From Nanobdellati archaeon (GTDB taxonomy: Archaea; EX4484-52; WAPT01): a stretch of 64,000 nt of DNA. Under the pieces are notes generated by a model, which worked only from the letters and a program-made list of their open reading frames with translations, had not been told where the DNA came from and did no database searches. Below are positions 3,058-23,143 of this stretch, in pieces (within the stretch, counting starts at the first letter, position 1; every line of letters starts with the position of its first letter). The position numbers and the translations under genes were made by a program. Where the stretch lies: the NCBI GenBank assembly GCA_015520605.1, contig WAPT01000001.1, positions 1 through 64,000 of the forward strand. The letters run 5' to 3'.

Positions 3058-3588
3058 GTGGAAAGAAAAAAAAATGGAATAAGAATTATGATGTTTGCAG
3101 TCATTCTGGGAATTACGTTTGGGCTATTTATTGGAATAAGAAGTTATTATTTAAAAAATATTAAGAACCCAAGTTCTGAACAAGATACTGAATGTTTAGG
3201 TAAAAATTTTGTTATAAGAGGTGAATTCTCAAGGTTTGATCCCTCACAAATGATTATGGCGATATATTTGGAAAACACGGGAGTTAAGGACATCAGCGTT
3301 AAAAAAGTGGAGGTAGATGTCGCTGGTAACTTGATGGTGGAATCATTAAAACACCCTATCATAATAAAAAGTGGTGAGGGGAAATACGTATATATAAACC
3401 TTACCGCATTTTTTCGAAACCCAGACAGCAAACATCTTATCAACGATGAAAATGGTCCTGAAAAAATCGTGGTATATGGTGATTGTAACAAAGCTCATGT
3501 GTTGAAACGACCGCCTTTGGGATGGGCGTTCTTTTCGTATGCCGGAGATGAACCACTCATTCCCGAGAAGGAGGGTGGAGCCACATGA
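3058..3588 (+). CDS. Membrane-anchored hypothetical protein, possible class III signal (pilin-like)
   Basis: MERKKNG followed by a hydrophobic helix. Beta-rich body with LENTG. Stop overlaps the start of the next pilin gene (ATGA). Confidence 0.6.
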   Translation: MERKKNGIRIMMFAVILGITFGLFIGIRSYYLKNIKNPSSEQDTECLGKNFVIRGEFSRFDPSQMIMAIYLENTGVKDISVKKVEVDVAGNLMVESLKHPIIIKSGEGKYVYINLTAFFRNPDSKHLINDENGPEKIVVYGDCNKAHVLKRPPLGWAFFSYAGDEPLIPEKEGGAT

Positions 3589-4040
3589 AAAAGAAAAAAG
3601 CCATTACTCCTTTCCTTGCAAGTGTTCTTCTAGTCGTTATAGTGGTAGGCATGGCCATAATTATCGGGAACTGGATGAAAACAACCGCAAAACAACAGAC
3701 AAAAGACATTACTGAGAATTCGGGAATTGAGTGTACCGATAAAACCATAAATATCGATGAGGTCGTATATTCAACCACAGATCAAACCCTCACAATAAAA
3801 GTGAGAGCTACCGGGACAGAGAACATTAATATTGGAAAAGTAAGTGTTCTTCTTGAAAATTTTAGTCTATTGACTTATGTCAACGGCGTTAATTTTTCGG
3901 TCGGTACGCTATTCCCGGGGGATGTAAGATATATAATCCTTGAAAATGTATCCTCAGTACCCCGAGAAGTAAGGGTAATACCGAAGGGATGCGGAATGAA
4001 TGCCGTAACGGTGGAAAGAAATTATTTTATAATACAATGA
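3585..4040 (+). CDS. Archaeal type IV pilin/archaellin-like protein
   Basis: Class III signal MKKKKA|ITPFLASVLLVVIVVGMAIII, small beta-rich C-domain, SD GGAGGGTGG upstream. Confidence 0.85.
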   Translation: MKKKKAITPFLASVLLVVIVVGMAIIIGNWMKTTAKQQTKDITENSGIECTDKTINIDEVVYSTTDQTLTIKVRATGTENINIGKVSVLLENFSLLTYVNGVNFSVGTLFPGDVRYIILENVSSVPREVRVIPKGCGMNAVTVERNYFIIQ

Positions 4041-4059
4041 AATGACATTATAATTTATT

Positions 4060-6465
4060 ATGGTATTATCTAATAAAAAAGAAATGCTGGAATGGGTTCC
4101 GTTATTTTTATTTCTTATTGTTGGTGTCCTACCAGCGGTCGGTCTCGCACAATACACGCTCAACATTACTTTTCTTTTGAACACCTCTAAAGTTAATCCG
4201 AGAGAGATCATTCATGTTTCCGGTATTGTCATGAATTCTAGTGGGACTGGAGTTGCCAGGGTGCCATTACATTTGCAACTCGACGGTTCGGACGTGTTCA
4301 CCATTCTAAATTCCAAAGGATATCTGGAAGGGGAAAACGGTGTATGGAAATACTGGAGAGAAATACTAATAAATGGTAGCATTTATGACTTATATAATTA
4401 CACATTACCGATTATAGTAGATACGCACCGGCTTATCGCTCAGGGTAAACTCAAAAGTGACTGTTCCGATCTTAGATTTATCGATAGTGCAGGAAGGGTT
4501 CTGAAATACTGGATAGAAAGTGGGTGTAACACACAAAACACAACGGTTTGGGTTAAGATACCCTACATCCCTGTGTATAACGAAACCAAGATATTTATGG
4601 TTTACGGGAATCCTAATGCCACTGCGGGAGGTGTGGATCCATCAGACCTTTTTATTTTTTATGATGGATTTGATTTTGGCTTAACTGGCTGGACCCTATC
4701 CACTTATGGTTTATGTAGCAGTAGCAGCTACAACCTGAGCAACGATTACTATTCATCCCCGCCATATGCTATTAAAGTTTACTCGGATCCATCATGGGGC
4801 TCCTTTCCATGTATAGTAATGGCCAACAAAGATTTTGTGGTAACTCAGAACGGCAGTTATGAGATCAGGGTGAAGTACAGAAACGACATTCCATTTCTAG
4901 GCAGTAATCTTATTTATTCGGTGGTGAATGTTGATGGGACCAACATCATTTACGATTCTTATAATGGGAGTATTCTAAAAGGCGGTTCTGAGATCGTAAC
5001 GCTTAATGCTGGAACTCATGATATTAGTGTGGGAGTTGATGCGAGATGGGTAAATGGATCTGCTTATTTTGACGACATAATAGTTAGAAAGGTCGTCAAT
5101 CCCGAGCCCACGGTTATCGAGATTGGTGATGAGATGAGATTCGTGACGACTAACGATAGTGGCGAATACAGCTTTGATTTCGTTGCTCCCCAGGAAGGAG
5201 GAACGCACATTTTGAAGGCTGAAGTTTTCGGAAAAAATGGAGAATATGGATGGAATGCAAGTGAATTTGTTGTGAGAATAGGAATAATTAATCAGAGTGC
5301 TATTTTTGTAATTAATAATAGGACGTCCGTAGATATAAAAAATGCAGTAGAATATCCTCAACTAAATATCTCCGCATATGTTTTCAGAAATCGTGATAAT
5401 CCCATAGAAAGGGTGTGGGTGACAGTTCATTCTCCTTTAGGCACAACTAGTGAAATAAATCTAACAAATTTAACTGCCCCACGCGAGGATTCCGGAGTGT
5501 GGGGTGCAATCGCGAATTTGAACGTTAGTTTCCCATCAATTGAAATAGGAAAATACACTCTCAGTTTTCATGCAATTTCTAAATTAAACAACGGTGAGGA
5601 AGTATATGAACAAATGCCATCACCTTCAGCGGATATAGAGATTACCGGAATTCCCTTTGAAATTTGCACCTCTAAAGTACAATATCATTTTATAAATGAA
5701 TGTTATGAGAACCTTTCATCAATTTTCAAGGAAAATGAAAACATATATTTTGTGATGAAAATCGGATCAAATACTGATCCGGTTTCCGGTCTGAAACCAA
5801 CGGATTTCATATTAAAAGATAGTGTAAAAAACTTATCTGCAGAATTTCAACAAAATTTAATAGAAATTTCTCCCGGTACATACATTAGCAATATTTCCGC
5901 ATCCTCCATAGGAGTGGGTAGGTACATACTTGAAGTGGAGGTTTACAATGGCAACGTGTTAATTTCCTCCACCTCTCTTTCCGTGTACATCCAGCCATCC
6001 AAAAAGCACAAATTGCCCAACATAACGGTGAGTGTTGAATCCCGACCCAACTTTATCGATACGTTCGTTCATGGTTGCGGGATGTTTGGAGAAGTGAACT
6101 TATCGGGAAGATATGCACTCACGGGCCTTGTCTTCTGCGATGGTCACGCAATTTATTATGAGAACTCAAGCGATCATCTTGAAGTTGTGAAATCCGCATC
6201 CCCTCACAGAACGTTGCTAATCTTCACGAGAGATGCCCCCCAAAAGGTTGTGAAAAAACTCTCAAAAATTGAAAACGGGAAGTTTGATTTCACAGCCTTC
6301 GGGTATAAAAGCGACAGGGATCGAACCTTAAGGATCATTATCCGGAGAAATTTCGAGATCGAAAATTTTATGATTCTCCGTCCGGGTAGGTATACTCTAA
6401 GGATTACGCATATGGGTCTCCTTGGCAATGTGCCACGCCTATCTATAGAACCTTCATCCTCCTGA
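4060..6465 (+). CDS. Secreted DUF2341-family surface protein
   Basis: N-terminal signal peptide. DUF2341-type motif series WKYWREI...DCSDLRF...YWIES...VWVKIP...MVYGNPNA. Ig-like beta segments and many N-x-S/T sequons. Confidence 0.75.
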   Translation: MVLSNKKEMLEWVPLFLFLIVGVLPAVGLAQYTLNITFLLNTSKVNPREIIHVSGIVMNSSGTGVARVPLHLQLDGSDVFTILNSKGYLEGENGVWKYWREILINGSIYDLYNYTLPIIVDTHRLIAQGKLKSDCSDLRFIDSAGRVLKYWIESGCNTQNTTVWVKIPYIPVYNETKIFMVYGNPNATAGGVDPSDLFIFYDGFDFGLTGWTLSTYGLCSSSSYNLSNDYYSSPPYAIKVYSDPSWGSFPCIVMANKDFVVTQNGSYEIRVKYRNDIPFLGSNLIYSVVNVDGTNIIYDSYNGSILKGGSEIVTLNAGTHDISVGVDARWVNGSAYFDDIIVRKVVNPEPTVIEIGDEMRFVTTNDSGEYSFDFVAPQEGGTHILKAEVFGKNGEYGWNASEFVVRIGIINQSAIFVINNRTSVDIKNAVEYPQLNISAYVFRNRDNPIERVWVTVHSPLGTTSEINLTNLTAPREDSGVWGAIANLNVSFPSIEIGKYTLSFHAISKLNNGEEVYEQMPSPSADIEITGIPFEICTSKVQYHFINECYENLSSIFKENENIYFVMKIGSNTDPVSGLKPTDFILKDSVKNLSAEFQQNLIEISPGTYISNISASSIGVGRYILEVEVYNGNVLISSTSLSVYIQPSKKHKLPNITVSVESRPNFIDTFVHGCGMFGEVNLSGRYALTGLVFCDGHAIYYENSSDHLEVVKSASPHRTLLIFTRDAPQKVVKKLSKIENGKFDFTAFGYKSDRDRTLRIIIRRNFEIENFMILRPGRYTLRITHMGLLGNVPRLSIEPSSS

Positions 6466-6543
6466 TCGTAGACAGGAATCGTAGAGAACGGACATCTTAT
6501 TGCTCGTTCAATTATAATGATATCCCTTGTTTTAGAATATATT

Positions 6544-9153
6544 TCATAACCTCACGGAAACTGTTGTGATTTCAAATGGATTTAAAGATATAACCAAGTT
6601 ATTTTCAGAAAATTTAATGTTTTTTTTTGATTTTTTATATTTCCTTTCTAAAATATCCACAATGCTTGCATCTTTTACTTCCTTGAAAAGTTTCAAAACG
6701 GCTCGTGTTTCACGACCCGCTGTTTCATAAATCCTTGCTATGATTTTTCCTCCGTCTTCACTCCTTTTAAAAGCGCTGAGAACCACATTGGAAGGTTCCA
6801 CTTCCAGAAAAGACCTGCTGCTACTGCATTTTATTTTCTTTTTTAGGATCATCATCCTGTGGTTGAATTGATAAGCGTGTATGTACGGCTCGGACTTTCT
6901 CCACCCTTCCGTATAAGGTAGTAAAGCGTACTCAAAAACATGTTCTCCGAGCTCGGTAGCGTTTACTGGAATAATCGGACCTGCCTTTCCATCGCAGGAC
7001 AGAACATTTACGGACCTTAGCAGAGTTAGATAAATGCTACCATCTCTGATTTCATTTTCAGGGATTCCTTTATTGATTACAGTCACCCCCAACCCGTCAT
7101 CATCCTCATAAGCTATCCACCTCAAAGCCGGATACACGCCGGAGGGCGCTTCCTTATATCCTGTAAAATCATCGTAAAACAGGTTGGCTTTCCTTTCCAC
7201 CACACCAAACTGTGTCTCACACCAGTAAGTTTTGTTATTTATGGGTGTTGTGAAGCGGACTCTCAGTCTTATTCTCGGGTGCTTGTTGAGAATGATTGTC
7301 GTGCAGTCTATTCTCGGCAAGTCCCTGTAAATGACGATTCTTTTCCTGAAGCTAAGTGTGTTGTGTCTCCACAACAAAGGTTTGAAGTGCTCCACAAGTC
7401 TGTAGGGCCATCTTAGAGAAAAGTAATCACCCACAACATCTATGATAGCTCTGAGGTTGGAAGCTGTGATTTTCACCTCCTTTATTTTGAACTCGCCGTA
7501 TTTGATTCCATCTCCACTTTCTGTCTTTATGGGATTCTTCAGCAGCTGTCTGTGAGAGTAGAGATCTCCTGATTCTTCCTCTATAACGAGCTCATTACCT
7601 CCAAAAATCCTTTTTTTGTTCATCCAAACTTCAATCATGCCGTTTTCTTTGTTTACCTTCACTTCAAAAAATTTGTTTCGAATTGTGCTTTCGCTCACAT
7701 GGATTTTGTCCCGGGTATTTGTGTTTTTACCCGTCTCTATTACTCTGTACGCTCTGTAGCCCAGCGGTGGAACATCCGCAATGAAACCAAGTTTTACTTT
7801 TTTAATAGAGCCGTCTCTGTGTTTTTCGGAAGCGATAACTTCCACATCAACCTTCTTATCCCCGCTTTCCAGAAGAACTCCACAGTTCTCACGTATTCTC
7901 CCGGCCTCAAGCTCCAGCTCAACTTCCACCCAATCAATAACTCTCCACGGAAGCGGGTTAAATACGACAAAATCCGCACCCATTTCTCTGTTGGAGTCGC
8001 TTTCTACAATTGATGATAATATTTCTCGCATCATTTCTTCACATCTCCTATCTATAAGAGAAGCGCAACGCTCCGCTTCCTCAAGAGCAGCATCTGTGCT
8101 TGTGCCTGATATCACATCGTGGAAAGCTAAGAACAGCAGCTTTTTCCAGCAATCCTCCAGATATTCTGGATAGCGTCCAGTCAGTAAAAAATTCACTGTG
8201 GCAAATTTCTCTAAGGTTATGAGCTTGCACTCCAGTGCGCGGAGCGTCTTTTTTATTTTTATCCTGCTTGAGGCCGTATCGGGAAAAATTTCTGAGTACT
8301 TACAGGAATACATTTCCCCCTTTCTCACAACCAATTCATTCCGATATTTTTCCAGTGCTCTGAAAAACTCTGAAGGTGTTGAGATCCTCATCTCCGCATC
8401 TTCGTGCTCCTTATTCCATTTTTTCACAGCTTCAACTATCTCCTCACGCGGAAGGGTGACTCCGCTACCGCAAGGCATGAGTATGTGTGGCGATGCAGCC
8501 ACACCTTTCAGAAATCTGTAGGATTCTTCCAGCCTGTCCAGATTCAGACCCGCTCTGTAACCTAAGGGCATAAAGTGAGCAAGAATTCTTGTTCCATCCA
8601 GAGCTTCCCAGATAAATTCAGAGGGTTTAATCTCGTGGGATCCGCGCCTGAATGCAACATATTTGTATCCTGCTTTTCTGTAAATTTGGGGGAGTTGTGC
8701 GTTCAGCCCGAAGCTGTCAGCCTGCCACATAACTTCAACACCCTTCCCGAATTTTTCCTGCACATACTTCTTGCCCACAAGGATCTCTCTGATGAGCGTC
8801 TCCTCCTGCGGAATCATCGTATCCGCCATTAAATACTCCCCGTCTGCAATCTCAATTTTACCTTCCTCTATGAATTTCGCGAGTTTTTTGAAAAGTTCCG
8901 GTTCTCTCTTTTCTATTTCTTCCAGAAGGTGTGTCTGCTCCAGAAGAAACCTGAATTCCTCATATTTTTCAAGAAGCTCAACAGCTTTTTTCAGTATCAT
9001 AATGTTGATACGGAGGTAATCCTCCTTGCTGAAGATCCAGACCGCATCGTAGTGTGTGTGAGGCACAAGGTAGATTATATTTTTCTTCTTTTTCCTGCCT
9101 TTTTCGGTTCTCCCTCCCGCACAGGTCTTCCGTGTTTTGTTCGAGTTATCCAT
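6544..9153 (-). CDS. Glycoside hydrolase family 38 alpha-mannosidase
   Basis: Zn-binding HTHYDAVW, nucleophile region WQADSFG, EFIWEALDG, FHDVISGT, FNPLPW, LTLLRS, and C-terminal RIYETAG / LNPFEITT. Confidence 0.93.
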   Translation of the reverse strand: MDNSNKTRKTCAGGRTEKGRKKKKNIIYLVPHTHYDAVWIFSKEDYLRINIMILKKAVELLEKYEEFRFLLEQTHLLEEIEKREPELFKKLAKFIEEGKIEIADGEYLMADTMIPQEETLIREILVGKKYVQEKFGKGVEVMWQADSFGLNAQLPQIYRKAGYKYVAFRRGSHEIKPSEFIWEALDGTRILAHFMPLGYRAGLNLDRLEESYRFLKGVAASPHILMPCGSGVTLPREEIVEAVKKWNKEHEDAEMRISTPSEFFRALEKYRNELVVRKGEMYSCKYSEIFPDTASSRIKIKKTLRALECKLITLEKFATVNFLLTGRYPEYLEDCWKKLLFLAFHDVISGTSTDAALEEAERCASLIDRRCEEMMREILSSIVESDSNREMGADFVVFNPLPWRVIDWVEVELELEAGRIRENCGVLLESGDKKVDVEVIASEKHRDGSIKKVKLGFIADVPPLGYRAYRVIETGKNTNTRDKIHVSESTIRNKFFEVKVNKENGMIEVWMNKKRIFGGNELVIEEESGDLYSHRQLLKNPIKTESGDGIKYGEFKIKEVKITASNLRAIIDVVGDYFSLRWPYRLVEHFKPLLWRHNTLSFRKRIVIYRDLPRIDCTTIILNKHPRIRLRVRFTTPINNKTYWCETQFGVVERKANLFYDDFTGYKEAPSGVYPALRWIAYEDDDGLGVTVINKGIPENEIRDGSIYLTLLRSVNVLSCDGKAGPIIPVNATELGEHVFEYALLPYTEGWRKSEPYIHAYQFNHRMMILKKKIKCSSSRSFLEVEPSNVVLSAFKRSEDGGKIIARIYETAGRETRAVLKLFKEVKDASIVDILERKYKKSKKNIKFSENNLVISLNPFEITTVSVRL

Positions 9154-9213
9154 CCCCTCCGACCCCGTTTAAGGCTAAGAACTGGTTTCTTATTGAGGGA
9201 TTAACGTGAAGCT

Positions 9214-10170
9214 CTATATGAATTCTGGGTACTCCTCTCTGTAAGCAGCGTGTGCGGCCATACCGTTCAGCATGCACACAATCCTTTTTATTCTGAAATT
9301 TACCACTTCCAGAAGCTCTCCGACCGTTTGCTCCATCGTGCGGAACTTTATTATGTGCAACCGCCTTTTTCGGGCTTCCTCAACCAGAAATTCGTTTATT
9401 TTTGTACATGCCTCAAAATCCTCTTCTATGAGCTGCCTATCAGTTTCTCCTTCCCTCAGTCTTTTTGAGAAGAACATTTGACGGTACGTTCCCTTTTCAG
9501 GTGCTTTCAGAAACACCTGTATCACATTCGGTTTTTTAAGCAGATCTGACTCGAGAAGCCATGGAGTGACATGCACACCCTCAATGGCGACATCCTTTTT
9601 ATCTTTGATGGATTTTTTCACGAGCTCGACTATGAAAGGACTTAGGAATTCGACCTGCTTCACAAACCCTTCTATCTCTGGATGTTCCGTGACTTCATGA
9701 CCCGGAAGTTTTTTCCACACACGATAAGACGGTAGATGGAGAATCGGGTCTTCCTTTATCAGAACCTTCAGCACACGCCTTATGGCATCAGTGGTTATTG
9801 TTCGGGAAATTGCCAGACGAAAACCCACATCAGTTAAAGACACCGTTTTTCCCACACCGGGAGGGCCGCCGACAAGGATTTGGAGGGGTTCAGCGATACC
9901 CCTCCTCCTGAGAACATTGTACCTGTGCCAGAGCTCGTATCTTTTCGTGAATTTGGAACCACAGATATTGGTAAGCGCATTCTTTGTTATCTCAAAAAGC
10001 TCTTCCGCAGCTATGCTTTTTCTGCCAAAAACGCTGTCCTTAACGTACTCCATAACTCTGACAGCATCCTCGAAAGGCACGCCCGTTTTAAGAACCGATC
10101 GGAAGATAAGATTCTCAGAGAACCTCAGCTTAAATCCGTTTATCTTCACGAAAGGTAAGTGACTTTCCAT
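9214..10170 (-). CDS. 2-phosphoglycerate kinase family protein (ATP-cone + P-loop kinase)
   Basis: N-terminal ATP-cone-like segment (FSENLIFRSVLKTGVPFEDA), then GGPPGVGKT, TDAIR and IEGVH. Confidence 0.8.
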   Translation of the reverse strand: MESHLPFVKINGFKLRFSENLIFRSVLKTGVPFEDAVRVMEYVKDSVFGRKSIAAEELFEITKNALTNICGSKFTKRYELWHRYNVLRRRGIAEPLQILVGGPPGVGKTVSLTDVGFRLAISRTITTDAIRRVLKVLIKEDPILHLPSYRVWKKLPGHEVTEHPEIEGFVKQVEFLSPFIVELVKKSIKDKKDVAIEGVHVTPWLLESDLLKKPNVIQVFLKAPEKGTYRQMFFSKRLREGETDRQLIEEDFEACTKINEFLVEEARKRRLHIIKFRTMEQTVGELLEVVNFRIKRIVCMLNGMAAHAAYREEYPEFI

Positions 10171-10340
10171 ACGTTTTAATACTCAGAACACACTCATTAA
10201 AATATCTTTCTATCTTGAGATGGTCGCTCCTTTCCGCGGAAGACAATGTGTCTCCAAAAAGCTAAAATAATCTTTATATACTTGTACGACCCCATAAGAA
10301 AATAACGCCATGCAAATGCGGAAGAATCAGGTGATGAGAA

Positions 10341-11483
10341 ATGAAAATAACCACGAGCATACCTAAACTTGATGAGCTTTTAGAGGGGGGTTTACCTGTC
10401 CATTCAACTGTGCTCCTGTTCGCGGATCCTCTCGCAGACGCGGCAACTTTCGCGCAGCAAATACTCTCCCACAGACTGGAGGAAGAAGATGTGGGAATAT
10501 ATTTGAGTACTAACAAGCTTCCAAAAGATGTTGAGAACAATATGTATAAACATGGGTTCAAAACACAGGAAATAATTTTCATAGACTGTCTGTCTTTCAC
10601 CTTGAAAAGGAAAAGTGATGCAAAATATACTCTTGATGAGATTATAACCAGCGGTAGGCCTGCATGGGAGAAAACAAAGGAGTTGTGGAAGAAGGCCATT
10701 CAGGAAGAGAAGGGTCAGAAACTAGCAGTCTGGGACTGTCTTGAAACATTCATGGGATTCGTGGATGAAATAATAGAGTTTGTTAAGGAATGTAAAAAGT
10801 TGAATGAAGAAAACAAAACAACATCTGTATTTATCCTTACAAACTGGGGTTATGATCCCAAAGATATCGAGAGGTTAAAGGAATCTTTTGACCTGGTTAT
10901 AGATCTCGCCACAGTATCGAAAAAACTCATGTATCTGAACTACTACAAAGTGGATCACAAGCCTGCGATACCCTTCAAAATCACTCTGACAGGAGTCACT
11001 CTCTACATACCAAAGATATTGATTACGGGGCCTTACAATGCAGGGAAGTCCACAATGGTTAAGGCTCTTTCGGAGACCGCAGTGAGCATAGACAGGTTGG
11101 GTACAACCATAGCCTTGGATCACGGATATGTGGAAAAGAAGGGGTTTGCCTGTAATATTTTTGGCACCCCGGGTCAGGAAAGATTCGACTGGATAATGGA
11201 AGTCCTCTCTAGGGATGTGTGGGGTGTGATACTTATTGTGGATTCGACCAAACCGGAATCATTTCCCAGAGCGCTGGAAATGTTGGAAAAGGTAAAGAAG
11301 GAGAACATCCCGTTCATAGTGTTTGCAAACAAGCAGGACTTGGAGGGTGCACTTCCGCCTGAAGAAATAAAAGAAAGGCTTGGTGTTCCCATAGTGATCG
11401 GGGGATCCGCGAAAACAGGAGAAAATGTAGAAAAAGCTCTAATAACCTTATTTGAAGAAATCCTTAAAAGGAGAGTGTTTTGA
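10341..11483 (+). CDS. Fusion of an inactivated KaiC/RAD55-like domain with an MglA-like small GTPase
   Basis: N-terminus TSIPKLDELLEGGLP with a degenerate Walker A (ADPLADAAT). C-terminus has G1 GPYNAGKST, G2 TTIALD, G3 FGTPGQERF, G4 NKQD and G5 SAK. Confidence 0.9.
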   Translation: MKITTSIPKLDELLEGGLPVHSTVLLFADPLADAATFAQQILSHRLEEEDVGIYLSTNKLPKDVENNMYKHGFKTQEIIFIDCLSFTLKRKSDAKYTLDEIITSGRPAWEKTKELWKKAIQEEKGQKLAVWDCLETFMGFVDEIIEFVKECKKLNEENKTTSVFILTNWGYDPKDIERLKESFDLVIDLATVSKKLMYLNYYKVDHKPAIPFKITLTGVTLYIPKILITGPYNAGKSTMVKALSETAVSIDRLGTTIALDHGYVEKKGFACNIFGTPGQERFDWIMEVLSRDVWGVILIVDSTKPESFPRALEMLEKVKKENIPFIVFANKQDLEGALPPEEIKERLGVPIVIGGSAKTGENVEKALITLFEEILKRRVF

Positions 11484-11558
11484 CCTTCCAAAAATCTTTA
11501 AATAATCCAAAAACCACAGTTTATACTGTACTTCAAAAATCAAAGGAGGGGTTGAAAG

Positions 11559-11933
11559 ATGCCTAAGGAAGAAGAATTGAAGGAAGCACTCTCAGATCTC
11601 AAAAATGTTTCAGGTGTGGTGGGAAATGCTGTTGTGACTCCTGATGGCTTGCTTGTATTTTCAGATCTTCCAGAGACAGTAAACAAGAGGGCTCTAGCAG
11701 CAATGGCAGCGGCTATTGTGGGTACGGGCATGCAGGTGACTAAAGAGCTTAACATTGGAGCTTTAAGCCAAGTAATGGTGGACGCTCAAGAGGGTAAATT
11801 CATCTCCATTAGTGTAGGTTCTGATGAAGATTCTCCGATTCTCTCAACGCTCGTCCAGCCGAAAGCGAACTTAGGTTTGGTATTGCTGGAAATGGAAAAG
11901 GCGGCGAAAAAAATCCAGAAAATCATGGCATGA
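11559..11933 (+). CDS. Roadblock/LC7 (MglB-like) protein
   Basis: VVTPDGL, LAAMAAAI and ANLGLV motifs. 124 aa, adjacent to the GTPase. SD AGGAGGG and a separate TATA (TTTAAATA, 11497-11504). Confidence 0.92.
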   Translation: MPKEEELKEALSDLKNVSGVVGNAVVTPDGLLVFSDLPETVNKRALAAMAAAIVGTGMQVTKELNIGALSQVMVDAQEGKFISISVGSDEDSPILSTLVQPKANLGLVLLEMEKAAKKIQKIMA

Positions 11934-12600
11934 CCTCTATTCCGCTTTCACTTATTTTGAATTTAAGAGTTATTGGTAGGTTTCTCGTTTCCCTCATTCT
12001 GTTTATTTTTAACAGTCTTATATCATTCTCCATAATGAAATTTATCGTTCCGTCTGTAAGGCTGTTAAGGGCTGTGACGACGTCTGGTGTGTGCATACCC
12101 TCCTCCACGGCTATCAGTATGGTCATGCCTGCTCCTTTCAGCCTGGCAGATAGCATGGAAATGAATCTCAGACAGAGGTCTTTCGGCACGAAGAGGAACA
12201 TGGTCGAAAGTGAGTCCATCACAACCCTTTTCACATTCTGATTTCTCATTTCCGTCAGGGCCTTTGTTACAGCTATGGTGAAGTTGGTGAGATTTGCTGG
12301 ATTGACCACCTCCTTTCCCTCTTCAACCCCCATCTGCCAAGAATATGCGTCTATAAACTTCAGAGGCTTCCCGTTTACATCCCACCCAAAAGATTTCATG
12401 CTGTTGATTATTTCCTCGGGAGATGCATTAAGAGTGATGTGTATTGCTCCCTCCCCATTCTTTAGTCCCTCATAAATGAACTGGTTACAGAAGGTTGTCT
12501 TACCTGCCCCAGGCACTCCCACGAGGAGTATGGATGCTCTTTCCGGTAGTCCACCACCCATAGCTTCGTCGAGCTTCTGAATTCCGGTGGCTATTCTCAT
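11923..12600 (-). CDS. Single-domain KaiC/RAD55-like RecA-superfamily ATPase
   Basis: TGIQKLDEAMGGGLP, Walker A GVPGAGKT, FIDAYS, Walker B VVMDS and the RMR arginine-finger region. Confidence 0.9.
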   Translation of the reverse strand: MRIATGIQKLDEAMGGGLPERASILLVGVPGAGKTTFCNQFIYEGLKNGEGAIHITLNASPEEIINSMKSFGWDVNGKPLKFIDAYSWQMGVEEGKEVVNPANLTNFTIAVTKALTEMRNQNVKRVVMDSLSTMFLFVPKDLCLRFISMLSARLKGAGMTILIAVEEGMHTPDVVTALNSLTDGTINFIMENDIRLLKINRMRETRNLPITLKFKISESGIEVMP

Positions 12601-12748: not shown

Positions 12749-14011
12749 GTGATACATATTGCGAAAGTGAGCGTAACAAGCTTCGTGTGCGAATCCATGA
12801 TACCAGCAGTGGAGATCATGGCGTCAAAAATACTTGCCGATGGCCACGAAATAGTTAAGGAGGAACATGCAGATATAGTGATTGTGGCAAGCTGCGCCCT
12901 CACACGGGAAATGATAAGGAAGTGCCTGTCGAGGGCACAGCAGGCAAGTACAATGGGTAAAAATGTTCTGATTATTGGCTGTCTCCCCGAAATAGGCGAG
13001 GAAAACATACTTGGGGTTGTGCCCTCGGCCAGCATTGCCGGAGTGAACTCCTTCCACCACATCGAAGATATTCTCAAAAAGATGGAGGAAGGATACAGGG
13101 TAAGGAGATTGAACGATCCACCAAGAATGCCCTTAAGTACCGTTATGTGGAGACGTGTAAATCCCCTCACCGCTTACATACCGACCGGGGAGGGCTGTTC
13201 CAGACGATGTGAGTTCTGCATCTGCAGGATAACCAGAGGATCGCAGATATCTTATCCTCCGGAGAGCATAATAAATGCTGTTGCGAAAGCTGTTGAAAAT
13301 AATGCAAGAGAGATTGTGCTCGTTTCCGAAGATGCTGGAGCATACGGAAGGGATATGGGAATAACGCTGCCTTCCCTGTTAAGAAAGATATTCACAATAA
13401 AAGGCGATTTCAAAATACGGTTGGGATACATAAACCCTGCGTCTATTTTGCCGTACTTTGATGATCTTCTATCCTGTCTTTCCCACCCGAAGATGTACAG
13501 ATTTATGCATCTCAATATTCAGTCCGCCTCCCAGAAAGTTCTTGAGAGTATGAAAAGGGACTACACTCCGGAGGATGTTGCAATGATTTTCAACAGGATC
13601 AGAAAGGAGTTTAATGGCTTTACGATAATAAGCGATATCCTTGTGGGTCATCCCGCCGAGAACGATGAGGACTTCGAGGAAACTGTAGAATTCCTCAAAA
13701 AGCTCAAGCCAGACTCCATTAACGTTTACGCCTACTCCCCTCACAGGGGTGGTGAGGGTAGCTTACAACCCTCCTGGAAGGTCAAGCAGAGATATGAAGA
13801 GATGCTCGCTCTCAAATCCCGGCTTGAAATTGAGAGTTCAAAAAGATGGATAGGGTGGAGAGGTGAGGTTACAATAATTCAAAACGATGGCAACATGGCT
13901 CTAGGAAGGAATTATGCTTATCGGGATGTCGTATTCAAAAGTTCTCTTACACCCGGGGAGAAAACCAAGGTGGAAATAAAAAACCATAAAGGCTACACGC
14001 TATTAGCCTGA
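12749..14011 (+). CDS. MiaB-like tRNA methylthiotransferase (archaeal MtaB/CDKAL1 type)
   Basis: N-terminal UPF0004 Cys residues (VC, ASC, IGC), radical SAM GCSRRCEFC, SEDAGAYG, QSAS, SDILVGHP and a short TRAM-like C-terminus. Confidence 0.82.
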   Translation: MIHIAKVSVTSFVCESMIPAVEIMASKILADGHEIVKEEHADIVIVASCALTREMIRKCLSRAQQASTMGKNVLIIGCLPEIGEENILGVVPSASIAGVNSFHHIEDILKKMEEGYRVRRLNDPPRMPLSTVMWRRVNPLTAYIPTGEGCSRRCEFCICRITRGSQISYPPESIINAVAKAVENNAREIVLVSEDAGAYGRDMGITLPSLLRKIFTIKGDFKIRLGYINPASILPYFDDLLSCLSHPKMYRFMHLNIQSASQKVLESMKRDYTPEDVAMIFNRIRKEFNGFTIISDILVGHPAENDEDFEETVEFLKKLKPDSINVYAYSPHRGGEGSLQPSWKVKQRYEEMLALKSRLEIESSKRWIGWRGEVTIIQNDGNMALGRNYAYRDVVFKSSLTPGEKTKVEIKNHKGYTLLA

Positions 14012-15867
14012 AGCTTCCTCTTTACTGTTTCCGCGACCTCCCTGCCGTCAGCCCTTCCTTGAAGTTTTTTCATGACTTCCCCCATCACCGCTTTAAAGTT
14101 TGCAGGTATCTTCCCTTCATTTATTATTTCATCCACAACTCTCTCTATCTCCTCGCGTGATGCTTTGAGAAGGTTCTTTTCTCTTACTATAGTCTCCGGA
14201 CGTTTCCCTTCGATGACACAATACTTGATTATCAGAGGCACGGAGTCCCTGCTTATCTTTCCATCGTTCAGGAGTTCGAGCAACTCTAAGATATCATCGT
14301 CGCTCAGCAAACTAACGTCAACACCTTCCCTGCTTTTAACCTCAGGGATAGTATTGACGAGTATTGCGGCTATTGTCTTTGCACTCAGATTTGAGAATGT
14401 TTCGATGGCCTTCTCAAAAAGATAAAAGTAGTCTGAGTTCAAAAGCTGGTTCGCGAGCTCCTTCCCAAGTCCGAGCGAAATGAACTCCTTGATTTTTTCC
14501 TCCGGCGTTTTAGGAAGGGATGCTCTCATCTCCTCTATCAAGTCGTTGGAAATGAAGACGGGAGGCACGTCTGTTTCTGGATACATCCTTGCAGCTCCAG
14601 GTAGAGGTCTCATGTATGCTGTGTCTCCGTTCTCAAGAGCGCGTCTTGTCTCTTCTGGAACGCGCTGCTGAAGTAGGAGTACTCTCTCTCTCACAACTTC
14701 CAGAGCTTTCTCGGCTTCTCCTCTCTCCTCCTCGCTATTGTAGACCACCATTACAACGAGGTCATCATCACTGCATTCCATTTTTTTCATGAGGGCTGTT
14801 ATCTCTTCCTTGCTGATGCGATACTTTTCCAACTTTTCGTCGGTGTGGATTATCCCTTTCATTTTCGTTTTTGCTTTCACGTAGTCGGCAACTTCCCTCC
14901 CAACAGTTCTGAAAGAATTCAACTCTCTGACAAAATAGCCAGCCATCCCCTCTATTTTCATTGCGAGGACCTTCTTACCTCTGACGATCCTGCTTTGAGA
15001 AGTTGTGAACACATCGCTAACATCAACGAAGAATGAGAACTTTATTTCCCTCTTTTTCAGCTCTTCCACGAGCTTTATCAGGCTGAGCTGCCTTTTGACT
15101 TCTTCCTTAACAAGACTCTCCAGAATGGAAAGATCCTGCACACCCTTAACTTCAATCCTGGCTCCTCCTTTCACCGATATGTTCACATCCTGTCTTATGC
15201 TCCCTATACCTCTCATCACCTTACCTGTGAGTCTCAACAACGTTCCGAGGGTTCTTGCGGCTTCCACCACTTTTTGCGGGGTGTCAAGCACAGGTGCTGT
15301 TGCTATCTCTATGAGAGGTATCCCGAGTCTGTTGAGCCCGTAAAGAACATGGTCATCGCCTTTCTCCAGAATTTGCGCGCTCTCCTCTTCAAGACATATC
15401 GTGGTTATGGGCACTTCTCCAAAGCTACACTTTAGCCTGCCATCCATACCTATCATAGCTGTCCTCTGGAACCCGCTGGTGTTGGAGCCATCTATAACTA
15501 TCTTCCTCATGAAGTGCACCTCATCAACAATCTCCGCGTCAAGTAAAAGCGCTATCTCAAGGGCTATGCGTAGCGCTTCCTCATTTACGTTATGTGGTGG
15601 CTCCTCGTCACACTCTACAAGGCATGAGCTTTTCCTGTACATCCTGTAAATGTACCTTCTACCCTTCTGAAACTCGTGAAGCGCTGCTGGATCTATCTCT
15701 CCAAGCTCGCTTTTACTCACCCTCAAATACCTGAAAAACTCGCCGTCACTTTCGTCTTCAAGCAAGGATTGGCAGTTACAGAAGAGCTTCCTCGTTTTCA
15801 GTCTGCGGTGGATCTCAATCCCGCATTTCAATCCAACGGAACTGTAATCAATATCTTCCACGCCCAT
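13993..15867 (-). CDS. gatE: Glu-tRNA(Gln) amidotransferase subunit E
   Basis: GLKCGIEIH, KLFCNC, RKIVIDGSNTSGFQRT, RQDVNIS, RPLPGAARMYPETD. Confidence 0.97.
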   Translation of the reverse strand: MGVEDIDYSSVGLKCGIEIHRRLKTRKLFCNCQSLLEDESDGEFFRYLRVSKSELGEIDPAALHEFQKGRRYIYRMYRKSSCLVECDEEPPHNVNEEALRIALEIALLLDAEIVDEVHFMRKIVIDGSNTSGFQRTAMIGMDGRLKCSFGEVPITTICLEEESAQILEKGDDHVLYGLNRLGIPLIEIATAPVLDTPQKVVEAARTLGTLLRLTGKVMRGIGSIRQDVNISVKGGARIEVKGVQDLSILESLVKEEVKRQLSLIKLVEELKKREIKFSFFVDVSDVFTTSQSRIVRGKKVLAMKIEGMAGYFVRELNSFRTVGREVADYVKAKTKMKGIIHTDEKLEKYRISKEEITALMKKMECSDDDLVVMVVYNSEEERGEAEKALEVVRERVLLLQQRVPEETRRALENGDTAYMRPLPGAARMYPETDVPPVFISNDLIEEMRASLPKTPEEKIKEFISLGLGKELANQLLNSDYFYLFEKAIETFSNLSAKTIAAILVNTIPEVKSREGVDVSLLSDDDILELLELLNDGKISRDSVPLIIKYCVIEGKRPETIVREKNLLKASREEIERVVDEIINEGKIPANFKAVMGEVMKKLQGRADGREVAETVKRKLQANSV

Positions 15868-19535: not shown

Positions 19536-20246
19536 TCAGCTCGCTTCTCTTGTTTCCAGCTCGAGATAATCAGCATAGCTGGGGAGGGTTATGAGAAGTT
19601 CAAACTCCGTATCATTGACCACAAGATGTGCTATCACCCTTCCTCGCGGTAGATTATTTCCGTACATTTCGGCATAAATATAGCCTGTAGCATTTTCAAA
19701 CACACTATCCACAAGGACCCTCACCGTGCCATTAAACGTAACGTTTTCCTTTAACAGTTTTACACCTGCGATGATCCTGCTCATATTTATCTGCTGCCAG
19801 TTATCGGGGGTTCCTGCCTTGGTTATGTTCACCTCAAGATATGAGTTCCTCATTGTGATCACATTCCCATTATCCACCACACTAACATCGTCACCTTCCG
19901 CTATTATGATGTTCCCTTCCCGAATCATAGCACTCCTTGCCACAAGCGGAGTGTCTGTTTTCATCCTGAACTCTATTAGATTTGAGCGGTTATCAATGAT
20001 CAGCACACCCCTCCTTATAACCAGCGGGACAACTCTGGTGGAACCCTTACCTTCAGCGATGATTTCCTGGAGCGATGTCGCGAGATCATGCATCATGGTC
20101 TTAGCACTTTCAAACGCCGCTTTGTCCCTAAGTGATTGAACGTAGGGAGTTATCGTGCTTATTAGGATTGCTATCACAACGATTGCGATGGTCATGTAGA
20201 GCGTTCCCGCAAGAAGGGGCGATACAGCCTTTCTTTTTCTCAGCAT
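19536..20246 (-). CDS. Type IV pilin-like protein
   Basis: Class III signal MLRKRKA|VSPLLAGTLYMTIAIVVIAILI and a GKGSTR motif after the long helix. Confidence 0.8.
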   Translation of the reverse strand: MLRKRKAVSPLLAGTLYMTIAIVVIAILISTITPYVQSLRDKAAFESAKTMMHDLATSLQEIIAEGKGSTRVVPLVIRRGVLIIDNRSNLIEFRMKTDTPLVARSAMIREGNIIIAEGDDVSVVDNGNVITMRNSYLEVNITKAGTPDNWQQINMSRIIAGVKLLKENVTFNGTVRVLVDSVFENATGYIYAEMYGNNLPRGRVIAHLVVNDTEFELLITLPSYADYLELETREAS

Positions 20247-20372
20247 GATTTTTTGTTAGATTCCAACAAATATATGTGTATGTGTATTCGCGCTCAGAGT
20301 GATCTTCACGATCAATCAAGAATTGATGGCAAGGTCGCAGCTGCTGAGATTCCGGAAATGCAAGTCCGTTTT

Positions 20373-20597
20373 TCACTTCACATGGATATCGACAATTTCA
20401 CCCAGCCGGATCACAGATTTTATTATTTCTGACTTGTCGGTAAAAAGGCTTACCATTCCGTCCCTGTGTTTCTTTAATACAATCTCCACTCGTTTTTCCA
20501 CCGGACTGGCAAACACAGTTCCGTTGGGAAGCTCTATTTTTTCGTAACCTTCCAGTTCCAGCTCCGGTTCATTCTTCAGCACAATCTCCACGATCAT
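20373..20597 (-). CDS. Small hypothetical protein (74 aa)
   Basis: Protein-like composition. A minus-strand TTTATAA lies about 24 nt upstream (20621-20627). Confidence 0.65.
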   Translation of the reverse strand: MIVEIVLKNEPELELEGYEKIELPNGTVFASPVEKRVEIVLKKHRDGMVSLFTDKSEIIKSVIRLGEIVDIHVK

Positions 20598-20662
20598 TAA
20601 CTTTACTAGTAGTTAAACGTTTATAAAGATTTTAAATATTTCACACGCAACCCGCGGATCTC

Positions 20663-20705
20663 AAAACAGGGACATCGCGAGATATTCCCGTAGCATCATC
20701 CCTGT
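20663..20705 (-). terminator. Hairpin plus U-tract after the pilin-like operon
   Basis: Minus strand reads ACAGGGA...TCCCTGT with an inner CGGGA/TCTCG stem, ending in TTTT, about 15 nt after the stop at 20720. Confidence 0.35.
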
Positions 20706-20719
20706 AGTGTGTGACCGGT

Positions 20720-21304
20720 TCAGCAGGGTGTGAGTGTTCTTGTGGTGATGATCCTGGTGTTTCCCGCAAGATCGGTGGCGATCACCACAATACCTCCGTA
20801 ATATTCTGTCTTCATCTCAGCGCGGAAGCACATGTCTGTATCCACACTATATACCCTAAAAGTGATATTTGCGGGAAGCGTTATGGAATAAGTCACCTCC
20901 TCGCGTTTCACATCCCAGGGTAGAAGGGGCGATGCAAAGACAATATTCCCATTCACATCCAGATAAAAGTTGGTTGTGTTTTCATTTCCATTGAAGAAAA
21001 GAAGGTCATAACCTGTGCCGTTTCTCTCCACCTCAAAAACGAACACGCTGACATTTTCACCTCTCTCTTTTAGTAGGGAAGATACCTCATCGTAAAATGA
21101 GACCACGGCATATCCATCGGTTTGCTTATCAGCCAGCATCGCTACCAGCGATTGGTCGAGGAATGTTCTGAACGCTTCCCTGCTCGTTGAGATGGTCAGA
21201 AAACTCGTTCTTCTTCCCATCCGAGGTACGGTCAGCAGTGATGACAGAACGAGGATGACCATTAAAGCCCCTATGATGAGCCACTGTCCCTTCCTCACTT
21301 TCAT
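20720..21304 (-). CDS. Minor pilin-like protein (class III signal)
   Basis: MKVRKG|QWLIIGALMVILVL. Start overlaps the upstream gene's stop. Confidence 0.75.
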   Translation of the reverse strand: MKVRKGQWLIIGALMVILVLSSLLTVPRMGRRTSFLTISTSREAFRTFLDQSLVAMLADKQTDGYAVVSFYDEVSSLLKERGENVSVFVFEVERNGTGYDLLFFNGNENTTNFYLDVNGNIVFASPLLPWDVKREEVTYSITLPANITFRVYSVDTDMCFRAEMKTEYYGGIVVIATDLAGNTRIITTRTLTPC

Positions 21305-21930
21305 TCGATTACCACCCTGATCTCGGCGTAATTTTGAGCATCCATAACCACGGGATAATAAACCTGTGCCACGTTATCAGTATCCTGGGTGTTGTTCCCA
21401 CACACAGATTCCTTTCTCACCACGATCCAGGCCGGGTTGGTGCAAGAAACGGAAAGGTATACCAGCCCCTCCAGACTGGGTGGAATTTCGATTCTGTAAA
21501 GTCTTGTGACCGTATAGTTCCCGAGTGTTGTGGAATTAACCTTAAAAAAGCACGATGTCAGGGTGGTCTCCACCGGGATGACGTCTATGTATGCTGTTTC
21601 GTTCTCCGCTATAATAAGATTAAGGGATGTGGAAAGGTTCGCAACTATGGCTTTTAAGCTCAGCATACCGATGTCAACATAGACCTTTTTTACCCCCACG
21701 TACGGTTGAACTATTCTCTTTATGCCTCCGGCATCACAGCTGATGGTATAATTTTGCAGCAGTGAAGCCCGTGCTGCGAAATCCATAATCTTCGAAAGCT
21801 TTTCGGTGTATATCCAATTGTCCCCCGTTTCTTTTTCCGGTAGAAGCAGCCACACCACAAAAGAGATAAGCAGCATTCCTGCTATAACACCCTCAATTAT
21901 GTGAATGTAGCCCTTACGTCCTATCTCCAT
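21301..21930 (-). CDS. Minor pilin-like protein (class III signal)
   Basis: MEIGRKG|YIHIIEGVIAGMLLISF. Confidence 0.75.
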   Translation of the reverse strand: MEIGRKGYIHIIEGVIAGMLLISFVVWLLLPEKETGDNWIYTEKLSKIMDFAARASLLQNYTISCDAGGIKRIVQPYVGVKKVYVDIGMLSLKAIVANLSTSLNLIIAENETAYIDVIPVETTLTSCFFKVNSTTLGNYTVTRLYRIEIPPSLEGLVYLSVSCTNPAWIVVRKESVCGNNTQDTDNVAQVYYPVVMDAQNYAEIRVVIE

Positions 21931-23120
21931 AACCTGATCACCATATCGACCGGAGTTATTGTTCCGTTCTCATAAAGCAATATGCCGGTGTATTTTCTCA
22001 CCCAGATGTTGGTGAAGAGAGGTTCCTTTTTCCCGAATGTGAAATTCCCGATGGTTACATTGAAATCGAAGCCTGTAACCCCCGAGTCCTCCTTTATTTT
22101 CTCATATGTGCTGTTCTTGATGCTGTTTAACGTGTTATCGCTCCAGATTCTCAACAAATAACGTCCTGCAACCGCCGTGGAGGAGTTGGTGAACAGCAAA
22201 TTCTCACAATCTCCACAATTAACAGCACCATCACAGAAGTATATTTCTGTTCTTTTTGTGTTCTCAAAGCTCACCCGTATGGTCAGGGTTCCAACCCTTA
22301 CATTGCATGCGGAACTGTCGGTCAGAAAGTTCATGTTTACGCCCGTGTTGGTATCGTAAAGGGAAATGAAACCGGTGCTCACAGCATAATTCCAGCCGTT
22401 TACCAATGTGGTTGATGATGACCCATCATACAATGTATCAAAGTCCCTTACAAGCACGAATGTGTAATTCTGGGGGTTCTCGGATATCAGCCATAGTCTC
22501 GGTGAGTAGGCATCCATGATGAGTTCCGTTGTGTTGAAGTCCAGCTCGATGAACGAGCACCCGTAGATAGAGCGCTGAAAGTTTGAGGGCATGAGCACGG
22601 GTTGAAATAGATAATTTGTGCCGTTGAAGTCCAGGGACGTTATGGAAGCTGTGCCGTATCCCACTTCTAGATACGTGTTCAGTATGCTATTCGTCCCTTC
22701 CCCGAGGTCGGACACGCATCCGTATGTTTTTATATCCCCGGAAGATACGCAGAGAAACGGCAATCCCGTGGTCACCACACTCCTTATTTTCCCGTCATGC
22801 ACACCGACGGGAAGTGTTCTATTTTTCTGAAAGCATGTGGTTATGGATGAGTTAGCGGCTGTAAACTCAACTGGGTAATGCTCAACGCGGCATCCATTCA
22901 CGACCCCCATATATGCCTCTGCGTCCGTGCTGAAAGCTTCGGCGACCCTTAGTATCTGGGCTGCCGCTAATCCTGGATCGTGTCTCTGAAAGGTGACCAG
23001 ATACTTCGCGTTAAGAAATTTTAATGAAATTGTGAGCGTTGTCAGAAAGATGATCATTGCCAGAGTCCATTCAAAATATGTTGTGGCCTTTCTCGAATCT
23101 CTTATGGTTGTTCTTCTCAT
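21921..23120 (-). CDS. Large minor pilin-like/adhesin protein (class III signal)
   Basis: RDSRKA|TTYFEWTLAMIIFL with Glu at +5. Body rich in Asn/Thr/Ser/Cys with many sequons. SD GGAGG upstream. Confidence 0.72.
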   Translation of the reverse strand: MRRTTIRDSRKATTYFEWTLAMIIFLTTLTISLKFLNAKYLVTFQRHDPGLAAAQILRVAEAFSTDAEAYMGVVNGCRVEHYPVEFTAANSSITTCFQKNRTLPVGVHDGKIRSVVTTGLPFLCVSSGDIKTYGCVSDLGEGTNSILNTYLEVGYGTASITSLDFNGTNYLFQPVLMPSNFQRSIYGCSFIELDFNTTELIMDAYSPRLWLISENPQNYTFVLVRDFDTLYDGSSSTTLVNGWNYAVSTGFISLYDTNTGVNMNFLTDSSACNVRVGTLTIRVSFENTKRTEIYFCDGAVNCGDCENLLFTNSSTAVAGRYLLRIWSDNTLNSIKNSTYEKIKEDSGVTGFDFNVTIGNFTFGKKEPLFTNIWVRKYTGILLYENGTITPVDMVIRLWR

Positions 23121-23143
23121 GCTCCCAAAACCCCCTCCTCCCG

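Follow-up and report, generated by a model that had tools for sequence, protein, structure and literature searches.

A KaiC-like pseudo-ATPase domain fused to a small GTPase, with Roadblock and KaiC-like partners: a candidate G-protein module in a small archaeal genome

Do three adjacent genes in a small archaeal genome make up a G-protein switch? The question is raised by positions 10,341 to 12,600 of contig WAPT01000001.1 (assembly GCA_015520605.1), from a Nanobdellati archaeon (GTDB lineage EX4484-52; WAPT01). The first 64,000 nucleotides of this contig were analysed (to be referred to as the window). Gene 1 encodes a KaiC-like domain fused to a small GTPase, gene 2 encodes a Roadblock/LC7 protein, and gene 3, on the opposite strand, encodes a single-domain KaiC-like protein. 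A preliminary description of the locus had read the trio as a signalling system. The evidence presented here argues, with a probability of about 0.6, that the three genes are a conserved three-component G-protein module of archaea, of which the host has one copy, the mechanism proposed below included. The trio looks like a signalling switch of the MglA/Roadblock type, analogous to the actinobacterial conservons, in which KaiC-like parts serve as a scaffold.

The three proteins and their motifs

Gene 1 is an open reading frame (ORF) with the boundaries and the two-domain organization previously assigned to it (Table 1), as confirmed by Pfam and by alignment. Residues 4-192 match the KaiC family (PF06745) with 42.2 bits against a cut-off of 26.6. 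Residues 225-375 match small-GTPase families (Arf, 53 bits; Ras, 50 bits), and the protein scores 74 bits against the NCBIfam model small_GTP (TIGR00231). The P-loop of the KaiC-like domain is destroyed. Its Walker A position reads ADPLADAAT, as had been noted, and this is a trait of the family. In an alignment of 21 fusion-family members (37-73% identity to the gene 1 product), the pattern GxxxxGK[ST] is found in none, and the Gly preceding the Walker A Lys is replaced by Asp, Asn or Glu in every member. The Lys itself is retained in 12 of the 21 and is an Ala in the gene 1 product. A Walker-B-like Asp is nearly invariant across the family, and it is kept in the gene 1 N-terminal domain. Profile-profile alignment to the family of the KaiC-like partner (see below) agrees with the earlier observation that no Arg is present at the finger position, and it places Asn-Lys at the site of the catalytic Glu-Glu pair. 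Walker A, the catalytic Glu and the Arg finger, the features expected of a functional ATPase, are all missing from this domain, and its P-loop, judged from the sequence, cannot be canonical.

All five motifs of a GTPase are present in the C-terminal domain (G1 GPYNAGKS, G2 TT, G3 GTPGQ, G4 NKQD and G5 SAK), again as described before. Across the 21 family members, G1 has the form GPxxAGKS/T, while FGTPGQERF at G3 and the two Thr residues of G2 (T255 and T256) are invariant. G4 is NKQD, but NFQN in three members, and G5 is weakly conserved.

This GTPase had been called MglA-type. MglA groups 2-5 have GTPGQ in G3, a Thr that replaces the intrinsic Arg of group 1, and coupling to an MglB/Roadblock gene (PMC4316618; papers given by PMC number are cited here from excerpts of their text). 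By its G2/G3 signature the gene 1 GTPase is assigned to these groups, and a Roadblock gene is located within four genes of it, as in their definition. The definition also asks for a single-domain protein, and here a KaiC-like domain of 215 residues precedes the GTPase. The name MglA-type can be kept in the sense of groups 2-5 (GTPGQ, Thr-Thr, Roadblock gene nearby), but not in that of the group 1 protein of Myxococcus.

The full gene 1 product was modelled with AlphaFold from the 21-sequence alignment, with a mean predicted local distance difference test score (pLDDT) of 91.0 and a predicted template modelling score (pTM) of 0.86. The model is one confident rigid unit, with a strand that crosses the domain junction. 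Its top match in the PDB is PH0284 (2dr3), a KaiC-like protein of the RecA superfamily (E 1e-16, template modelling (TM) score 0.79-0.81, root-mean-square deviation (rmsd) 2.7-3.1 Å). The GTPase domain modelled alone (pLDDT 88) matches structures of Arl6, Arl2, Arf, Asgard ArfR and Rab with E values of about 1e-12. This search does not separate MglA from Arf/Arl/Rab, so the subfamily is not decided by the fold.

The product of gene 2 is a Roadblock protein, as had been proposed. It matches Robl_LC7 (PF03259) with 41.3 bits (cut-off 23), and this is the sole match to PF03259 in the host genome. The gene starts 75 nt downstream of gene 1. The closest solved relatives of its product are Roadblock/LC7 proteins (7f8m, 7yh1 and 9jue; E 6e-14 to 1e-10), and CvnB5 (3leq) is a weak match (E 0.02). 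An Asp-Gly pair is present in the product, similar to the pair of the MglB partners of MglA groups 2-5 (PMC4316618).

The product of gene 3 is KaiC-like, with 129.4 bits against PF06745 (cut-off 26.6). The motifs previously listed for it were recovered in alignments: Walker A (GVPGAGKT), the Walker B Asp (VVMDS) and RMR. With HMMER, its TLNAS aligns with TFEE(S/T) of solved KaiC chains, and Asn-Ala is found where the catalytic Glu-Glu would be, as had been noted. RMR aligns with KLR of the same chains, which we take to be the Lys/Arg-finger region of KaiC, and is the Arg-finger equivalent. Because the P-loop, Walker B and the Arg finger are intact, the gene 3 product looks ATP-binding, and it probably can bind ATP; that it turns ATP over is unlikely. 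It is not a bona fide circadian KaiC, because it is a single-domain protein of 225 residues that stays far below the cut-offs of the KaiC equivalog models (68-87 bits against 408-546). No KaiB-like gene was found among the neighbours of the trio.

The loss of the Glu-Glu pair extends to the partner family. Eighteen copies were aligned (gene 3 and 17 others, hand-picked from 15 of the 26 loci with a linked partner, see below), and the pair is missing in all of them. Its site is occupied by Asn-Ala in three copies, Asp-x in nine, Ser-Lys in two, Arg/Gly-Glu in three and Gly-Met in one. Of the 18, 17 retain the Walker A Lys; the residue that follows it is Thr/Ser in nine and Glu, Asp, Leu or Lys in eight. 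Closer homologues of gene 3 are more regular: of 15, 12 have Asn in place of the first Glu and 13 have a canonical Walker A. ATP binding across the whole partner family appears doubtful. Given the loss of Glu-Glu and the odd P-loops, ATP turnover is unlikely as a conserved signal, which weakens the earlier suggestion that the two KaiC domains link ATP/ADP status to the GTPase.

The partner family and the N-terminal domain of the fusion align end to end in hhalign (probability 99.9%, E 1.2e-33, 216 columns), and Asn at the first catalytic Glu position is common to both. This alignment and the shared Asn make the two appear to be paralogues whose divergence followed the loss of the Glu pair. The host genome has seven KaiC/RadA-family genes, including gene 3 and the N-terminal domain of gene 1. 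The other five (Table 1) keep a Glu at the catalytic site; it is missing only in gene 3 and in the fused domain.

Table 1. Coordinates of the trio, its domains and associated elements in the window, and of the other KaiC/RadA-family genes of the host (contig:positions).
Feature	Position	Strand	Remarks
Gene 1, KaiC-like domain::small GTPase fusion	10341..11483	+	380 aa ORF
Gene 1, N-terminal KaiC-like pseudo-ATPase domain	10341..10985	+	residues 1-215; PF06745
Gene 1, C-terminal small GTPase domain	10986..11483	+	residues 216-380; MglA group 2-5 signature
Gene 2, Roadblock/LC7 protein (MglB/CvnB-like)	11559..11933	+	124 aa; PF03259
Gene 3, single-domain KaiC-like partner	11923..12600	-	225 aa; PF06745
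3' overlap of convergent genes 2 and 3	11923..11933	.	11 bp
TATA-box-like element of gene 1, core TTTATATA	10269..10280	+	61 nt before ATG
TATA-box-like element of gene 2, core TTTAAATA	11493..11504	+	55 nt before ATG; GGAGG ribosome-binding site after
Other host KaiC/RadA-family genes	C15:72976-73623, C19:29592-30350, C1:20378-21103, C19:74-703, C19:4465-5037		

Conservation of the trio and layout of its locus

The fusion is not confined to the host. A word-seeded search gave 660 matches at E<=1e-3. Among the 120 matches listed, the lengths are 334-424 residues and 84-100% of the query is covered; those that are named carry only the labels 'GTP-binding protein' or 'ATPase domain-containing protein'. 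When 1.84 billion representatives were searched exhaustively with a profile, 169 clusters reached E<=1e-30; among the 150 representatives listed, 94 have at least 340 residues, the length of two domains. One of these 150, P0171 (527 residues), has KaiC-like, GTPase and Roadblock domains, in this order, in one chain; it is the sole such case among them.

For the comparison of gene neighbourhoods, contigs of one genome per species were searched with the pattern FGTPGQERF, and 80 loci were kept. Both domains of the fusion are matched at 31 of them (L001-L031). The other 49 are stand-alone GTPases of Actinomycetota, Chloroflexota and Methanomicrobiales, as would be expected of proteins with such a signature. 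The fusion loci belong to Aenigmatarchaeota, Woesearchaeota, Parvarchaeota, Nanoarchaeota, Nanohaloarchaeota, Altiarchaeota, Methanobacteria, Archaeoglobaceae and Hadarchaeota, and also to the anaerobic methanotrophic group ANME-2, Methanoperedens and other Methanosarcinales. Lineages of Methanobacterium and Methanocellales also have related loci. Among named organisms, the nearest relatives of the trio proteins are from Aenigmatarchaeota and other DPANN metagenome bins. At one stand-alone GTPase of Methanomicrobiales (L043), no neighbour has a KaiC or Roadblock match in Pfam, and no pre-fusion state is visible there.

The 31 genomes were searched with genes 2 and 3, and the coordinates of the neighbourhoods were compared by hand, contig numbers being assigned to contig names by coordinate agreement alone. 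A Roadblock gene adjoins the fusion on the same strand at 28 of the 31 loci. At the three loci where none is visible (L016, L029 and L030), the contig breaks off on the side on which the gene should lie. The preliminary description had accepted that a third gene unlinked to the fusion in other genomes would refute it, and the loci do not show this. A KaiC-like partner is located in the same cluster at 26 of the 31 loci, as a rule within one compact operon. Among the remainder, L030 probably fits as well, and L004 and L016 cannot be judged; the last two loci, L003 and L006, will be considered below.

The arrangement of the three genes varies among the loci. The order is KaiC-fusion-Roadblock at 14 loci and Roadblock-fusion-KaiC, often with a second KaiC gene, at 10. 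The closest relatives of gene 3 are the KaiC genes of L001 and L002 (46% and 44% identity; E 3e-64 and 5e-62), and both are positioned directly upstream of the fusion in one operon. The genes of the module overlap by 4 bp in L020. At one locus, L005, the module is part of a Woesearchaeota operon (6001-11086) with several overlapping stops and starts. This operon contains the fusion, two small ORFs, the Roadblock gene, genes for an ATP-binding cassette (ABC)-type periplasmic binding protein (ABC_sub_bind) and a HAMP membrane protein, and KaiC. A convergent layout like that of the window is found at one locus from a distant lineage, L007. Its contig ends in 127 nt that are identical to the start of another contig, which carries the end of the Roadblock gene and, after it, two convergent KaiC-like genes.

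Two loci show other departures from the common form. L024 (G024 C1:11960-17827) has a tandem duplication, in which KaiC, fusion and Roadblock genes are followed by a second gene of fusion length (a 392-residue frame near 16302), with three more Roadblock genes around it. In a Hadarchaeota bin (L029:71-1293), two ORFs with a 13-nt overlap take the place of the single fusion gene, one for the N-terminal domain (183 residues) and one for the linker and GTPase (227 residues). This could reflect a frameshift or an error of assembly, or the split could be genuine.

The host genome (863 kb in 27 contigs, 90.7% complete) has a single fusion gene and a single Roadblock gene, so their pairing is unambiguous. 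Genes 2 and 3 are convergent and their 3' ends overlap, exactly as had been stated. The order and orientation of the trio and the 11-bp overlap are kept in two congeners (G032 and G033), with identities of 91-96% for the fusion, 93-98% for the Roadblock protein and 81-95% for the partner.

Genes 1 and 2 had been said to have similar promoters. Both 12-mers are indeed present, AATCTTTATATA (10269-10280) and AATCTTTAAATA (11493-11504). They are the sole matches to AATCTTTAWATA in the 64 kb, where 0.06 would be expected; the pattern was derived from these same two sites, and the match test is therefore post hoc. Only the TATA core is conserved in the two congeners, which keep TTTAWATA but not the AATC part. 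The spacers of the more diverged congener have changed, yet TTTATATA (gene 1) and CTTTA(A/T)ATA (gene 2) are in register with the starts and the ribosome-binding sites. The resemblance of the two words stands, but a special element shared by the two promoters was rejected, because the congeners conserve the TATA core alone. By their sequence the two words are TATA boxes of the usual archaeal kind, and each of the two genes seems to have its own promoter. A scan for bacterial promoters and terminators performed no better than with shuffled sequence.

The trio is flanked by a 2-phosphoglycerate-kinase-like gene and a gene for an MtaB-type methylthiotransferase, followed by GatE, an HD protein and GatD. 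The guanine plus cytosine (GC) fraction around the trio, 0.42-0.45, is within the range of the window. No sensor gene is present at the trio locus of the host genome. The 2-phosphoglycerate-kinase-like P-loop gene (9214-10170, minus strand) is divergent from gene 1 and is not an equivalog (162 bits against a cut-off of 343). GatE (13993-15867) is near the module on the opposite strand. The same proximity is seen in Hadarchaeota (L029:2055-3959) and is probably due to chance.

Known systems and rival explanations

The trio shares features with several known systems. In Myxococcus xanthus and Thermus thermophilus, the gene for the GTPase MglA is likewise located beside a Roadblock/LC7 gene, that of MglB. 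However, group 1 MglA has TVPGQ and an intrinsic Arg finger beside the G2 Thr, and the GTPase of the trio has neither. The trio also has two additional parts, the dead KaiC domain fused to the GTPase and the conserved third, KaiC-like component. Moreover, MglA of Myxococcus is tied to polarity and motility, and no such link is seen for the trio. The survey of MglA proteins by Wuichet and Sogaard-Andersen (2014; PMC4316618) began from single-domain proteins, and its excerpt gives no conserved neighbours for the archaeal group 4.

The actinobacterial conservons (CvnA-D, Mfp) are analogous in composition. They too are operons that combine a GTPGQ-type GTPase of the MglA family, a Roadblock protein and nucleotide-dependent input proteins (PMC13621833; conservons and related actinobacterial G-protein systems are also treated in PMC13343842 and PMC11343762). 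In the pattern search, the stand-alone GTPases of Actinomycetota carry the same FGTPGQERF signature as the GTPase of the trio. On the other hand, no CvnA-type histidine kinase is present among the neighbours of the trio, and DUF742/CvnC (PF05331) has no match in the 90.7% complete host genome. Two KaiC-like domains take the place of CvnA and CvnC, and the host is archaeal rather than actinobacterial.

The archaeal proteins ArlH/FlaH and CirA (Haloferax volcanii; PMC10983859) are single-domain KaiC/RecA-like regulators and not clocks, a description that would also fit gene 3. They act on a motor ATPase through ATP binding and autophosphorylation, whereas no such ATPase is linked to the trio. 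The scores against the ArlH model stay below its cut-off of 215 (58.5 bits for gene 3, 28.3 bits for gene 1), and gene 3 lies in no archaellum cluster. Makarova, Galperin and Koonin are said to have proposed a 'KaiC-like signalling hub' in 2017, with an abstract that reportedly includes KaiC homologues with inactivated ATPase domains.

The Roadblock/longin platforms of Asgard archaea and eukaryotes (Ragulator-Rag, TRAPP) likewise bring together a Roadblock-fold protein and a small GTPase (PMC10933270). In strain MK-D1, small GTPase genes are generally not in operons with Roadblock genes (PMC10933270), whereas in the trio family the pairing of the two genes is nearly invariant. The C-terminal Roadblock domain of the Rag type is absent from the GTPases of the trio family, except in the triple fusion P0171. 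No published KaiC::GTPase fusion with Roadblock in archaea was found in full-text searches; the supplements of Makarova, Galperin and Koonin (2017) may bear on novelty. In their excerpts, PMC4858521 and PMC3149612 mention KaiC, small GTPases and Roadblock separately, not joined.

Several observations weigh against the three genes being one G-protein module. Gene 2 has no match to MglB of Thermus or Myxococcus at E<=1. Neither its fold nor its sequence brings the GTPase domain nearer to MglA than to Arf/Arl/Rab, and MglA of Myxococcus (6izw) ranks 36th among its fold matches (E 3.8e-11). Gene 3 is convergent to the other two genes, which have separate TATA boxes, so co-expression is not implied. 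In the 1.3-Mb genome of L003 no KaiC match reaches E<=1e-8, and the visible contig of L006 holds no KaiC partner. The module is also patchy within the order. The three genomes of the genus (host included) all have it, and it was found in none of 38 others (G034-G071; seven sister families, completeness 57-95%, fusion threshold E<=1e-30). This genus-restricted distribution suggests gain by transfer or repeated loss. The fusion of L003, with a Roadblock gene adjacent, has a truncated N-terminal domain (match from residue 41), and the module there may be decaying or simplified.

Other explanations of the trio have to be weighed against these points. According to one, close to the preliminary description, the KaiC hetero-oligomer would read ATP/ADP status by ATP hydrolysis and act through the GTPase on neighbouring type IV pilus-like machinery. 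The intact Walker A, Walker B and Arg-finger equivalent of gene 3 are consistent with it. Genes for ATPases of the KaiC family and for Roadblock proteins (arCOG02603) are a frequent component of archaeal type IV pilus loci (PMC4858521), which makes a pilus output a reasonable idea, and MglA controls pilus polarity in Myxococcus, as excerpted sources have it. Pilin-like genes with class III-type N-termini were confirmed on both sides of the trio, 6 kb upstream (3585-4040) and 7-11 kb downstream (19536-23704), but housekeeping genes in mixed orientations separate them from it. A PF00437 (T2SSE-type) ATPase gene is found within 10 kb of the module in none of the 31 genomes, in a test that covers the visible DNA and in which many module contigs are short. 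The family is present in 30 of the 31, and it shares a contig with the module in two, at distances of 52 and 53 kb. The four PF00437 genes of the host are on contigs C1, C7, C8 and C10, and none is on C15, the contig of the module. Linkage to a type IV pilus was rejected as a conserved feature on these grounds, and the pilus output that had been suggested is not supported. Hydrolysis as the signal fares no better, with Glu-Glu missing from all 18 partner copies and Thr/Ser after the Walker A Lys in half of them. Overall, this explanation is unlikely. Two side observations concern the pilus genes. An 801-residue DUF2341 surface protein is encoded beside the upstream pilin-like gene (4060-6465). 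A different KaiC paralogue (C1:20378-21103) is about 4 kb from a T2SSE-type ATPase gene (C1:15313-16017), so it is this paralogue, and not the trio, that adjoins pilus or archaellum machinery.

Gene 3 might instead be a neighbour that converges on gene 2, has a promoter of its own and plays an unrelated role of the KaiC type, such that only the fusion and the Roadblock protein cooperate. Its opposite strand does mean a separate transcript, paralogues are common in a genome with seven KaiC/RadA-family genes, and L003 and L006 have the fusion-Roadblock pair without a partner. Such independence is hard to reconcile, however, with linkage at 26 of the 31 loci, with the closest relatives lying directly upstream of the fusion in the L001 and L002 operons, and with a convergent layout that both congeners and a distant lineage share. 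Gene 3 and the fused domain are, moreover, alone among the seven family members in having no Glu at the catalytic site. This leaves the neighbour explanation distinctly unlikely. Very unlikely is an arrangement in which the fusion forms a two-tier KaiC-like ring (CI on CII), with the GTPase as the second tier, the Roadblock protein in a KaiB-like role and the partner capping or competing. Foldseek does align the fusion model to full-length KaiC chains over 406-450 columns, and both domains are modelled as one rigid unit. But the rmsd of 11.6-14.2 Å and the TM score of about 0.5 are those of two P-loop folds matched serially, not of a shared architecture, and the N-terminal domain lacks both the Arg finger and the P-loop that hold KaiC rings together via nucleotide. 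That the trio serves anti-virus defence, or is another mobile accessory module rather than a signalling system, is scarcely credible. The patchy distribution within the order and a weak PADLOC match of gene 3 to mad8 (E 7.7e-7, residues 17-73) would fit. The mad8 match, however, spans the P-loop region only, the sole PADLOC match of the fusion has an E value of 0.008, and the Roadblock protein has none. The conserved core includes no nuclease or other effector gene, the GC fraction does not set the trio apart from the window, and its neighbours are housekeeping genes.

Proposed mechanism and significance

If the three genes are a G-protein module, the GTPase domain would be the switch. The Roadblock dimer would dock on it and set its nucleotide state, in the role of GTPase-activating protein (GAP), guanine nucleotide exchange factor (GEF) or both, by analogy with MglB and CvnB, which are thought to act in these ways (PMC3199381, PMC11016934, PMC13621833). 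The dead KaiC domain would pair with the KaiC-like partner through an interface like that between RecA-type protomers, and the pair would form a scaffold. This hetero-oligomer is the least secure step of the mechanism. The partner in the host would bind ATP and hydrolyse it poorly or not at all, and the GTPase would be gated or clustered by nucleotide binding or by the oligomeric state, not by ATP turnover. Sensors would be plugged in by lineage. In L005, the presence of the core, a periplasmic binding protein and a HAMP protein in one operon suggests a relay from interchangeable sensors.

A broader generalization is more tentative, and we consider it possible but doubtful. The trio may belong to a widespread class of archaeal G-protein systems, in which a crippled KaiC/RecA pair, one member fused and the other free, is a nucleotide-binding, non-hydrolysing scaffold that replaces the kinase and the exchange factor of the conservons. 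Through this scaffold, interchangeable sensors would be connected to an MglA-like switch, with the Roadblock protein setting the off-rate. The sensor-less copy in the 0.86-Mb genome would then be the core machine stripped to its essentials.

Small GTPases that pair with Roadblock proteins are regarded as ancient and are placed near the root of eukaryotic Arf/Rag-type signalling. To our knowledge, the regulator set, the input and the output have been established for no archaeal pair of this kind. The trio is a defined, conserved and compact three-protein system for the study of archaeal G-protein switching at the bench. Such a test is feasible, because the host has a single Roadblock protein and a single GTPase of this kind and the partners are thus unambiguous. 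The value of the finding rests in the family. The copy described here is a minimal, rearranged example of the module, and what it adds is the rearranged gene order and a partner with a canonical P-loop. Through the trio, two members of the archaeal KaiC-like family, which is large and for the most part unexplained, would gain a function, and it would become clear what pseudo-ATPase KaiC domains do.

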